A stretch of DNA of 64,000 bases from Escherichia phage vB_EcoM_G2540, in the sequence record MK327936.1; one strand, written 5' to 3'. The notes below the pieces were generated by a model. The model was not told the origin of the DNA and searched no databases. It was given only the letters and a program-made list of their open reading frames with translations. Shown here in pieces: positions 4,335 through 59,793 of the stretch. A program made the position numbers and the translations under genes. Numbering within the stretch: position 1 is the stretch's first letter; every line of letters starts with the position of its first letter.

Positions 4335-4603
4335 TATTTAAAACGAATAGTCGAATCCTTGAAGAATAGTCCAGAACATACTGTTCCTTCTACTTTCTGC
4401 CCAGTAGGTCCAATAGCACGAAATCCAGTATGCTGGAAATCATTTTCAGAGCAACCGAACCAATTATATCCAGTGATTTCAATATTAGTAAAACCACTTG
4501 AAGACAAAACTTTGGTTGCATTATCAGCATCAGTACATCCTATTAAAGACACTGCTAATACTAATGCTGCGATAGAACGATTAATATATTTCATAATTTT
4601 CAC
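4334..4603 (-). CDS. putative lipoprotein, 89 aa
   Basis: signal peptide with lipobox-like LIGC motif (MKIMKYINRSIAALVLAVSLIGC). Confidence 0.5.
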   Translation of the reverse strand: MKIMKYINRSIAALVLAVSLIGCTDADNATKVLSSSGFTNIEITGYNWFGCSENDFQHTGFRAIGPTGQKVEGTVCSGLFFKDSTIRFK

Positions 4604-4971
4604 TTAAATTTAATGGCTTGAAGAAGACTAATAATTCTCAAGCGACTTCCTTCATCTTTAACTGTAAAAGAAAGAGGGTCACCAGATTTCATAGTGATAG
4701 TGCATTCAAAAGCAAAACCTTCGGGAACTTCTTCGAAGAAGTCAAATTCTTCATCATAAATTAGAACATTACTCTGAAAACTGTGAAGAATTTTTCCGTC
4801 ATTTCCAGATGCTGTACTAATCATTGTAACATTATTACCTTTCATATCTTCAACGATAAATTCGCTTGTAGATATTACAGCATTAATAGAACCATTCCTA
4901 TAAATAGCAGAAAATAGATATTTCTTTTCTTCACCTTCGCGAATGCGATATTTCTTACCGATTTTAAACAT
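4600..4971 (-). CDS. hypothetical protein, 123 aa
   Basis: ORF tightly packed with neighbours (start overlaps stop of upstream ORF). Confidence 0.45.
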   Translation of the reverse strand: MFKIGKKYRIREGEEKKYLFSAIYRNGSINAVISTSEFIVEDMKGNNVTMISTASGNDGKILHSFQSNVLIYDEEFDFFEEVPEGFAFECTITMKSGDPLSFTVKDEGSRLRIISLLQAIKFK

Positions 4972-15876: not shown

Positions 15877-17216
<1,340 letters not shown>

Positions 17217-17241
17217 TATATCATCCTCAGCAATTTATTTT

Positions 17242-17271
17242 ATAATACCATAACAAGCTGAGAAAGTAAAC
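17242..17271 (-). promoter_or_regulatory. T4-type early promoter
   Basis: plus gtaaac 17266-17271, 18-bp spacer, plus ataata 17242-17247; upstream of the nuclease-like ORF and dam. Confidence 0.5.
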
Positions 17272-17315
17272 AAATTTATGAAATTTGTGATAAATATTAA
17301 TTTAAAGGAGGACAT

Positions 17316-17516
17316 ATGGCACAAAAATTAATGGCACTTGTTAATGCCATAAAAGGTAATAAAAAACGTATAGCTTTTACTATTTCTGCTATGGTAGGAA
17401 TTTTACTCTGGAACTTTATTTTATCACCAATTGCAATTGCGCATGGTGTTAATATTCCAGTAGTTACTCTTGATACATTCGTAGATCTAGCATTTGCTTT
17501 AGTTGGGTTAATTTAA
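17316..17516 (+). CDS. small hydrophobic (membrane) protein, 66 aa, plus strand
   Basis: strong Shine-Dalgarno AAGGAGG 5 nt upstream of the ATG; hydrophobic sequence; GATAAATA (one mismatch to the late consensus) at 17289-17296. Confidence 0.5.
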   Translation: MAQKLMALVNAIKGNKKRIAFTISAMVGILLWNFILSPIAIAHGVNIPVVTLDTFVDLAFALVGLI

Positions 17517-18541
17517 ATCTTGGCATATTTAGATAACCGCATTTTAGCCATTAACCCCTGGGCAATATTATTTTTCATATATTCCATAATTTGTTCAGGG
17601 GTTGCACCTTCCTTTCTAATCATATCATTAACATCTTTTGATTTCCAGGGAGATTTATCCCAAAACATAACCCTTTCTCCTGCATCAACTAATTTAGTCA
17701 TTCGCTTGATAGTGTCAGGGTGACGAGGCTCATTATCTAAAACCCACACTCGTCTATCTTTAAATGGAACAACTTCTAGGTCTAATTGACCACCCGTAAT
17801 AGCTATACCATTTTCAATAAAAAGTGAATCTATAGGTCCTTCTAGAACATATACATCACCATCTTTAACTCGTTCGACTCCATATATTTTTGTTGCCTCA
17901 GGATAAGCTTTGATGGTGATATATTTTTGAGGAGCATCTTTCTTTAATGCACGTCCTTGAAAAGACTCAGCTTTTCCATTAGCATTATAAATTGGAATAA
18001 CAAGACGAGGCTCAGAAATTTCCTTTTTGTATGTTCCCGGTGCTATGCTATTAACTAATTTAGGCCATTCGGTTGTAAACCAAAGATATTTCCATTTATC
18101 CTTTGGAATACAACGAGCTTTTACATATTTTATAATTGGATGGTCTTCCGCCAGTTTATCTAATCTAACACATGACGGAAGAGATTTAATTATTTTCTTC
18201 TCAGGATGTTTAGGAAGTTCTTTAGGTTTTTCTACTGGACGACTTTTACCTTTTTCTTTTCTTATTTCAAAGATATACTCACGATATAAATCAGGTTCAA
18301 ACTCCTTTAAATATATTCCGATTGGCGCATGATAGTTACAGTTATAACAATGAATATTTCCTTCATTATTATCACCATAATACCATCCACGCGCTTTATT
18401 TTGGTCGGTTTTTGAATCTCCACAAACTGGGCATCTAAACCGTAATTTAAAAGTTGAACTATTATTTACTTGTGTGAATTTAGGTAAATGAGCTAATGCA
18501 CGATATGCAAACTCATTATCAATCCAAGCTATTGATGACAT
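17513..18541 (-). CDS. 61: DNA primase gp61, 342 aa
   Basis: 342 aa as in T4; N-terminal zinc-binding domain (CPVCGDS...CYNCNYH) and TOPRIM-like core. Confidence 0.85.
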   Translation of the reverse strand: MSSIAWIDNEFAYRALAHLPKFTQVNNSSTFKLRFRCPVCGDSKTDQNKARGWYYGDNNEGNIHCYNCNYHAPIGIYLKEFEPDLYREYIFEIRKEKGKSRPVEKPKELPKHPEKKIIKSLPSCVRLDKLAEDHPIIKYVKARCIPKDKWKYLWFTTEWPKLVNSIAPGTYKKEISEPRLVIPIYNANGKAESFQGRALKKDAPQKYITIKAYPEATKIYGVERVKDGDVYVLEGPIDSLFIENGIAITGGQLDLEVVPFKDRRVWVLDNEPRHPDTIKRMTKLVDAGERVMFWDKSPWKSKDVNDMIRKEGATPEQIMEYMKNNIAQGLMAKMRLSKYAKI

Positions 18542-33114: not shown

Positions 33115-33831
33115 ATGAATTATAAACTAATTTATGAAAAGTTAATCTCTAATGCTAAATCTCGAAAACTTGATTGTTATACTGAATCTCATCACATTAT
33201 ACCACGCTGTTTAAATGGCAGCGATGATGCTTCAAACTTAGTAGATTTAACACCAGAAGAGCACTATGTAGCTCATCAACTTTTAGTAAAAATTTATCCT
33301 TCTGAACCAAAATTAGTCTATGCTGCTAACATGATGACAGTTTCTACGAAATACGCTAAACGCAACAATAAAACTTTCGGTTGGATTCGTCGTAAACTCT
33401 GGGAAATAGAAAAGAATAAAGAATTCTCCCAGGAGACACGAAAGAAAATGTCTGATGCAGTAGCTAATAAAGCAAGACTAACTTGTCCTCATTGCGGTAA
33501 GTCTGGATTAAGCGGGAATATGAATCGTTGGCATTTTGATAACTGCCCAAATCACCCTAATCCTAAAGTTAGACCACCAATGTCTAAAGAACACAGAAAT
33601 AATATCTCAAACGGGCTTAAAGCAATCGTTCTTGAAGAAACATCCTGCGAATTCTGCGGAATGATAGGCAAGAAATGCGTTATCGCAGCGCATAGAAATT
33701 TCTGCAAGAAAAATCCAAATGGACGCAAGAAAACTGAAAAGACTGGTACTTGCGTCCATTGTGGTAAAGTTACCACTTTCGGAAATTTATCAAGATGGCA
33801 TAATGATAACTGTAAATATAAACTTAGCTAA
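33115..33831 (+). mobile_element. free-standing HNH homing endonuclease, 238 aa, with three C-terminal zinc-ribbon repeats
   Basis: HNH motif ESHHIIPRCLNGSDDASNLVDLTPEEHYVAHQ; three Cys-rich repeats (CPHCGK...RWHFDNC, CEFCG...AAHRNFC, CVHCGK...RWHNDNC); opposite strand to neighbours. Confidence 0.8.
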
Positions 33832-59580: not shown

Positions 59581-59793
59581 TCATTTTTGTCCTGTATTTA
59601 CTTTATGCCGATGCACGGCCTTAACTTTATCAAGGTATTTTTCAAAATTTCGCAATCTAGTATAGTCTGCCGGAGATTGGTTGAGTGATACTTCTCGACG
59701 CAAAGCTGAAATGATATTTCCAACTTCCCTACGAATTTCATCTAATTGAAGAACAGTAAGATTGCGAAGTTGCTTTTCAGTTAATTGTAGCAT
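59581..59793 (-). CDS. small hypothetical protein, 70 aa (rI.1 position)
   Basis: ORF between the late promoter and rI. Confidence 0.4.

Follow-up and report, generated by a model that had tools for sequence, protein, structure and literature searches.

The main holin of bacteriophage T4 is gpT, a 218-amino-acid (aa) class III holin with a large periplasmic domain, and together with the antiholins RI and RIII it belongs to the small phage proteins of the inner membrane and periplasm that act on the timing of lysis. Among the lambdoid class II holins and pinholins, S21 68 has about 70 aa and two transmembrane (TM) helices, and the three-TM holins of the gene transfer agent (GTA) type (PF11351; PHROG 3427), exemplified by RHWG_00029 of Rhodobacter phage RC1 and its Rhodobacter capsulatus relatives, comprise 140-190 aa. 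Here we describe a 66-aa open reading frame (ORF) on the plus strand of Escherichia phage vB_EcoM_G2540 (record MK327936.1; "the window" below means the whole stretch of DNA that was analysed, 64,000 nucleotides (nt) in length), which lies in the early-gene block and converges on the primase gene 61. Judged from its sequence and from that of its relatives, it is very probably a genuine gene for a late membrane protein, and the predicted membrane core of its product is likely to be a distant relative of the last hairpin of the GTA-type holins.

The predicted protein belongs to PHROG 2024 (E=1.6e-31, residues 3-66 against profile positions 2-65 of 65), the whole 65-position profile being matched and no difference from the family being apparent; since no function has been assigned to this family, membership is uninformative on mechanism. 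With the GTA-type holins it shares the arrangement of the last hairpin, in which L-W-N-x-[IV]-[IL] is followed by L-P-P-x-P-x-[DE] and then by a helix rich in small residues, but at 66 aa the T-even protein lacks their N-terminal ~100 residues, their basic C-terminal tail and their endolysin neighbour. It is like the lambdoid class II holins and pinholins in its size, its predicted two-helix core, a row of small and polar residues along which helices could pack and its presumed late expression, whereas these holins have a charged C-terminus and are located in a lysis cassette, and no homology to them was detected, no search having been aimed at it. Unlike the ORF, the genes for gpT, RI and RIII, which act in the same phages, are mapped and characterised, and no sequence relation to them was noticed, no comparison having been aimed at one. 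Finally, late promoters also occur in the early region of T4, in front of soc and gene 49, where, as here, NATAAATA stands shortly upstream of a Shine-Dalgarno (SD) sequence and an ATG within a block of early genes. However, soc and gene 49 are minus-strand genes like the early genes, and early transcripts offer them a second source of mRNA, whereas the small gene lies on the opposite strand, so that a late promoter is its sole plausible source.

Coding evidence and distribution of the gene

The 2-kb stretch around the ORF is 100% identical to several Tequatrovirus genomes, e.g. that of Escherichia phage vB_EcoM-fFiEco06, and 95-99% identical to ~500 further genomes of this genus. The window coordinates parallel the T4 map, with the early and middle genes mrh, soc, 56, dam, 61, sp, dmd and 41 on the minus strand. 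An earlier note on this DNA, made from the sequence alone, had described a hydrophobic plus-strand ORF of 66 aa situated between the dam operon promoter and the primase 3′ end and convergent with gene 61. Such an ORF is indeed present, the coordinates (Table 1) agree with this placement, and the predicted product, MAQKLMALVNAIKGNKKRIAFTISAMVGILLWNFILSPIAIAHGVNIPVVTLDTFVDLAFALVGLI, has a grand average of hydropathy (GRAVY) of +1.21.

The ratio of nonsynonymous to synonymous substitutions (dN/dS, Nei-Gojobori) was 0.10-0.68, and mostly 0.1-0.4, in all informative pairs. Cross-genus differences at codon positions 1, 2 and 3 amounted to 31-36, 12-15 and 36-44, respectively, with the second position the least variable, a pattern typical of coding sequence which argues that the frame is translated; natural length variants, moreover, differ by whole codons (62-63 aa vs 65-66 aa). 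This constraint is not borrowed from the opposite strand, since the region of the small ORF is overlapped by a minus-strand ORF only in the 4 nt of the convergent stop codons. A tblastn search found homologues in 692 phage records, of which 686 cover at least 80% of the protein; ~500 of the records are Tequatrovirus, at 89-100% aa identity, and ~190 are Mosigvirus and Gaprivervirus, at 44-56%. The earlier note had asked whether the ORF is conserved or disrupted in related phages, and had left the choice between a genuine late-expressed membrane peptide and an antisense transcription unit over the primase 3′ end. The ORF proved intact, and purifying selection, the intact orthologues and the conserved SD and late-promoter core support the former, whereas a purely antisense unit fails to explain constraint at the amino-acid level. 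On these comparative grounds, the small ORF is a real protein-coding gene of T-even-type phages.

Hundreds of T4-like genomes, that of fFiEco06 among them, already list the ORF as a 'hypothetical protein' (e.g. KMC06_gp032), but the T4 reference does not; it also appears as a 'putative membrane protein' in JB75 (JB75_0238) and as RB69ORF029w. In T4 itself (NC_000866, 17738-17938, plus strand; positions 3739-3939 of L003, numbers of this form denoting the loci compared), an intact 66-aa ORF (MVQKLMALV...) with the same promoter and SD is found, for which the reference record holds no annotation. The T2 record LC348380 lists the primase gene alone under the match, the ORF being apparently unannotated there too, and the exact T4 protein sequence was found solely in Logan read-archive assemblies, without an NCBI protein accession.

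Intact orthologues occur in Tequatrovirus, Mosigvirus, Gaprivervirus and Gelderlandvirus, in Klebsiella T4-like phages (Potts1, Marfa) and in T4-like metagenomic contigs, and 24 of 24 diverse relatives match PHROG 2024 as the window protein does. A profile search of a collection of 5.8 billion proteins resolved two subfamilies: a T4-type one with the pattern ...AIKGNKKR...WNF..P..AHG..P.V.LD..VD...GLI, and a second one, found in Klebsiella T4-like phages such as Potts1 and Marfa, that starts MGTLFYQIWKL...LWNLLVVPIAATQGV.LPQVT.EH.... An exhaustive hidden Markov model (HMM) search of 1.84 billion cluster representatives returned just 18 matches at E<=1e-3, nearly all of 52-70 aa, and a scan of IMG/VR returned 10 loci. 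Gaprivervirus VR25 (L005) carries a copy of each subfamily, as head-to-tail tandem paralogues before the primase (1495-1692 and 1701-1901, the latter being the second-type copy) that are ~25% identical; the Klebsiella T4-like phages have the second type alone, and T4 and Mosigvirus the first type alone.

Throughout the T4-like loci examined, the gene occupies the plus strand between gene 56 (or dam) and gene 61 and converges on the primase, and this placement holds even for members at ~25% identity. The interval between 56 or dam and 61 is otherwise plastic, with dam, a 186-aa ORF, segF and soc paralogues variably present, while the small gene stays joined to the primase 3′ end, usually with the 4-nt stop overlap, which is identical in T4, Mosigvirus ST0, L018, S16 and Klebsiella phage Potts1. 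Relatives outside the T4-like phages were found near tail genes and endonuclease VII (L024, L033), near a RelA/SpoT-type gene (L025), and at a prophage end ~1.5 kb from a lysozyme gene (L026). In L024 (4553-5210) and L033 (3543-4159), which are unrelated non-T-even contigs, the distant homologue comes directly after an endonuclease VII-family gene, and the latter comes after a 94-aa ORF and a large tail-like gene, so that a three-gene arrangement recurs.

A conserved core of a probable late promoter

A late-promoter-like element had also been proposed in the earlier note, and the octamer GATAAATA is found there, in agreement with the consensus TATAAATA at 7 of 8 positions and 19 nt before the ATG. 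T4-type late genes, which depend on gp55, gp33 and gp45, have an element of this type near the start of the gene, about one helical turn ahead of the transcription start. Of the ribosome-binding signal described in the same note, the near-perfect SD AAGGAGG was recovered, but the spacer of 5 nt was not, its length being 4 nt (ACAT). The corresponding spacer in T4 is 6 nt long, and every orthologous locus inspected has a GGAG or GGAGG motif in the equivalent position.

Ten lineages keep both the SD and, at 16-22 nt from the ATG, the NATAAATA core, although their upstream sequences are otherwise unalignable. The octamer reads GATAAATA in the window, T4, L012 and L019/L020, AATAAATA in the dam-less Tequatrovirus loci L009-L011 and in Mosigvirus, and CATAAATA in Gaprivervirus, L018, L023, Klebsiella phage Potts1 (L030) and L032; in an eleventh lineage, Gelderlandvirus S16, ATTAAATA takes the place of NATAAATA. 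Even within Tequatrovirus three different upstream contexts occur, similarity starting a few bases before, or exactly at, ATAAATA. In Potts1, the CAT of CATAAATA is at the same time the start codon (ATG) of a divergent minus-strand gene.

The heptamer ATAAATA is strongly avoided in this genome: both strands of the window together hold 6 copies, against 42.5 ± 6.4 in dinucleotide shuffles (a ~7-fold depletion), and each occurrence is for this reason a good candidate for a late promoter. Four of the five copies other than that of the small ORF shortly precede an ATG, and soc and endonuclease VII are two of the genes concerned (Table 1). When the small ORF's own copy is included, five of the six stand 20-35 nt before an ATG. 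Elsewhere in the window, a perfect TATAAATA at 4899-4906 on the plus strand has no SD or ORF downstream and is antisense inside a minus-strand ORF (4600-4971). This site is a candidate for an orphan late promoter, and the RNA made from it would run antisense to early genes.

In none of the eleven lineages compared (window, L003-L007, L009-L020, L023, L029, L030 and L032) does the octamer begin with the consensus T, its first base being G, A or C in ten of them, with ATTAAATA in S16; over the whole window, four of the six ATAAATA copies do have T as first base of the octamer. The persistent departure from T at the small gene suggests selection for a weaker promoter. In a set of 50 T4 late-promoter sites, 32 are perfect, nine have A at -13 (the first position) and the rest show other deviations, including TA-to-AT (PMC2988020), and first-base variants are thus a documented class of natural T4 late promoters (PMC2988020). 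In addition, T4 early and middle transcripts are all of the opposite polarity, and late transcripts are of either polarity (PMC2988020). A plus-strand gene in this block could accordingly be read from a late promoter alone, because early and middle transcription uses the other strand. Late expression of the small ORF is strongly implied by these features of the sequence, and we infer that its transcription in vivo is late.

Predicted protein and its resemblance to holins

The best 19-residue window of the protein has a hydropathy of 2.0, and AlphaFold2 run with the family alignment (predicted local distance difference test (pLDDT) 77) places helices at residues 2-12, 16-42 and 52-63. The predicted layout comprises a basic N-terminal helix, a TM helix at ~16-42 that contains W32-N33 and P38, a turn G44-x-x-L47-P48, D53, and a C-terminal helix at 52-63. 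Conservation among 24 members is high at W32 and N33 (23 each), P38 (all 24), G44 and P48 (22 each) and G64 (20), A40 and L47 are likewise conserved, and residue 53 is acidic (D or E) in 24 of 24, being D53 in the window protein. All five basic residues fall within the first 18 positions, and the C-terminus reads ...DLAFALVGLI. Under the positive-inside rule the basic end of a membrane protein faces the cytoplasm, and the N-terminus is predicted to be cytoplasmic since the basic residues cluster there. The long helix has a near-invariant Asn at its centre in addition to the invariant Pro, and on the C-terminal helix D53, D57, A61 and G64 line up on one face, as a stripe of acidic and small residues. 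TM helices are classically driven to associate by a buried Asn and by small residues arranged in stripes, and for these two reasons the protein would be expected to oligomerise. As modelled, the last helix could either re-enter the membrane as a hairpin or rest on the periplasmic face.

In regards to the holins, a divergent family member (P0117) matches phrog_3427 'holin' by itself at E=5e-4, with a weak match to PF11351 'GTA_holin_3TM', and a tblastn search with it reaches the 'GTA-like holin' of Pseudanabaena phage Pan1 and a 170-aa protein of Rhodobacter phage RC1. The RC1 gene RHWG_00029 lies directly after the endolysin, and its product matches PF11351 (E=5e-5) and phrog_3427 'holin' (E=9e-7). 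A holin profile was built from RC1 relatives, among them several with PF11351 or with the source name '3TM holin', and its comparison with the small-protein family by hhalign gave a probability of 86-88% and E values of 3-5e-6 over 39 columns. In this alignment holin residues 112-151, which form its last membrane hairpin, are paired with family residues 27-65, and the motifs coincide. Column-permutation nulls, in which composition was kept and order destroyed, had a mean score of 10-11, a standard deviation of ~2 and a maximum of 20, and none of 300 reached the real score of 36.3. It is because the real score lies so far above these nulls that we judge a distant relation to the membrane core of the GTA-type holins to be likely. 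The predicted TM helix and the putative late promoter also agree with the general description of a holin as a small phage membrane protein that has at least one TM domain and is expressed late.

A number of observations weigh against a late, holin-related gene. The protein is not a member of GTA_holin_3TM: the PF11351 gathering threshold is not reached, as the window protein gives no match and the best of the three matching members among 24 has E=0.03; one clear TM helix (16-42) and a short C-terminal helix stand against three TM segments in ~120-170 aa; the charged hydrophilic C-terminal tail typical of holins is absent; and no endolysin or lysis cassette is adjacent in any T4-like locus, the gene being placed between gene 56 or dam and the primase. 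The holin similarity consists of 39 columns of a hydrophobic segment, and this comparison was picked after the weak matches had been seen. Neither the protein nor the family profile had a significant match in searches of Pfam, NCBIfam, PADLOC and the PDB. The promoter may be weak, since its first base is never the consensus T, and in the literature searched we found no study of the small ORF and no ribosome profiling (Ribo-seq) study of T4 either. T4 lysis, moreover, is genetically explained by t, e, rI, rIII and the spanins, which leave no obvious gap for a further lysis function.

When the AlphaFold2 model was compared with BFVD by Foldseek, a single match was significant, and this was to a family member. 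One UniProt entry in the Foldseek results is automatically named 'Holin'; the matches to other holins had E>4, which is meaningless for a helical protein of 66 aa, and were discarded.

Proposed role and alternative explanations

In the explanation that we tentatively prefer, a gp55-type late promoter, with NATAAATA 16-22 nt before the start codon, would confine transcription of the small gene to the late phase of infection, its expression would probably be weak, and translation would start from its strong SD. The product would be a 66-residue inner-membrane protein, with its basic N-terminus in the cytoplasm and one long membrane-spanning helix, that self-associates in the inner membrane late in infection and thereby affects the integrity of the membrane or the timing of lysis. 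It would be an accessory to the known T4 lysis genes, either holin-like or holin-modulating, and not the main holin. Late self-association in the membrane appears to be the most likely mechanism because the helix-turn-helix core is probably a distant relative of the GTA-type holin hairpin. Taken whole, with the mechanism included, this explanation is a serious possibility that we would not yet call probable, and a holin-like or lysis-related role, considered on its own, is conceivable but rather doubtful. It could even be imagined that the protein is a minimal single-hairpin descendant of GTA-type holins, kept at deliberately low late expression, that tunes lysis timing or lysis inhibition beside gpT, RI and RIII, its promoter possibly doubling as a late antisense switch for the primase gene; we regard this extended version as speculative and improbable.

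The evidence for a late membrane-protein gene applies equally to a small late protein with a role unrelated to lysis, e.g. a helper in assembly or packaging, a superinfection or defence factor, or a modulator of host membrane proteins, and the resemblance to holins could then reflect a shared hairpin architecture. Such a role would fit a gene that in T4-like phages is never found beside lysis genes, that lacks the charged C-terminal tail, that belongs to a PHROG without assigned function, and whose non-T4 relatives near tail genes and endonuclease VII (L024, L033) or near the RelA/SpoT-type gene (L025) have no clear holin-endolysin cassette. However, the profile-profile match to PF11351-type holins is far above the composition-matched nulls and includes the most conserved motif of the family (W-N ... 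L-P-x-x-x-[DE]), and the L026 relative at a prophage end is ~1.5 kb from a lysozyme gene. We keep this alternative as a real contender, though stopping somewhat short of considering it probable.

The late plus-strand RNA could also be the functional product, extending antisense into gene 61 to shut down the primase late or to stabilise and process the 3′ end of the primase mRNA, with the ORF being secondary. The convergence with the primase and the overlapping stop codons in most lineages, the constant link with the primase 3′ end while the rest of the interval changes, and the lack of a plus-strand terminator-like site between 17516 and 18700 would be in keeping with this, and since no such site follows the ORF, antisense read-through into gene 61 is plausible as an extra effect. 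As the function of the locus, the RNA is nonetheless very unlikely, since it would leave unexplained the low dN/dS, the second-position conservation, the whole-codon length variants, the conserved SD and ATG, and a protein motif conserved at ~25% identity, and the two tandem paralogous ORFs kept by Gaprivervirus point to protein dosage or diversification. Finally, a short and hydrophobic ORF that belongs to no Pfam family and is unannotated in both the T4 reference NC_000866 and the T2 record might have been over-called by gene finders, having arisen by chance in an AT-rich intergenic spacer. This is hardly credible in the face of purifying selection, intactness in 686 of 692 matches, the PHROG match (E=1.6e-31), and orthologues at 25-55% identity that share locus, SD and promoter. 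Both a chance ORF and a function confined to RNA were rejected on account of the codon-level constraint.

Neighbouring genes and elements

Table 1. Coordinates of the small gene, its signals and other features of the window.
Feature	Position	Strand	Remarks
Small membrane-protein coding sequence, 66 aa, PHROG 2024 (predicted)	17316..17516	+	ATG 17316, TAA 17514-17516
T4 late-promoter-like octamer GATAAATA	17289..17296	+	core ATAAATA 17290-17296; 19 nt before ATG
Shine-Dalgarno AAGGAGG	17305..17311	+	4-nt spacer (ACAT) to ATG
Primase gene 61	17513-18541	-	convergent with small ORF
Convergent stop-codon overlap, small ORF (+) and primase gene 61 (-), 4 nt	17513..17516	.	sequence and ORF list
Terminator-like hairpin ATGGCATTAACAAGTGCCAT and T-run	17321..17350	-	within codons 6-12 of small ORF; consensus scan
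Sigma-70-like candidate promoters of the divergent unit (186-aa ORF and dam)	17237..17270	-	back-to-back with late promoter; weak evidence
186-aa ORF	16656-17216	-	upstream neighbour of small ORF
dam	15877-16656	-	beyond 186-aa ORF
soc	15260	-	preceded by ATAAATA
238-aa ORF	33115-33831	+	preceded by ATAAATA
Endonuclease VII (gene 49)	46083	-	preceded by AATAAATA
70-aa ORF	59581-59793		preceded by ATAAATA

The minus-strand hairpin within the small ORF is located ~165 nt after the primase stop, where transcripts of gene 61 might end. Covariation is uninformative on it because there is no variation within Tequatrovirus; whole-region folds of Mosigvirus and Gaprivervirus showed no recognisable counterpart. 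GenBank record MZ726795 annotates a terminator under the match to this hairpin. The sigma-70-like candidates on the minus strand are two overlapping 9/12 matches, a count no higher than in shuffles, and the JB75 record has a phiSITE-predicted promoter at the equivalent position.

The 186-aa ORF is immediately upstream of dam, with its stop overlapping the dam start, and the two are probably co-transcribed. It matches REase_II in PADLOC (E=9e-5) and, below threshold, DpnII in Pfam (E=0.0045), and contains the motif FD72-x12-E85-I-K87; judging by the sequence, its product may be a PD-(D/E)xK nuclease akin to type II restriction enzymes. Its position next to the gene for Dam, which methylates GATC, hints at a restriction-modification-like pair, with the 186-aa protein as the GATC-nuclease-like partner. 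Among 503 matching Tequatrovirus records, ~146 cover at least 80% of the 2-kb query including this ORF, and roughly that many may carry it; T4 retains just a C-terminal remnant (L003 3640-3702). A single-sequence AlphaFold2 model of the 186-aa ORF had a pLDDT of 54, too poor for a fold search.

Significance

The small gene is ordinary in kind, i.e. a small conserved phage membrane-protein gene, and is mildly notable for the missing T4 annotation, for a conserved late promoter that never begins with T, and for a membrane core that is likely to be distantly related to GTA-type holins. T4 is among the most thoroughly annotated genomes, yet its reference lacks the ORF, and adding it would be a small but concrete correction. 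The gene is conserved, with its own putative late promoter, across the enterobacterial T-even genera examined. If the link to holins is not functional, the protein would be one more small phage membrane protein without an assigned function; if it does reflect function, T-even phages would have an extra membrane-active late protein, which may bear on their incompletely understood control of lysis timing.

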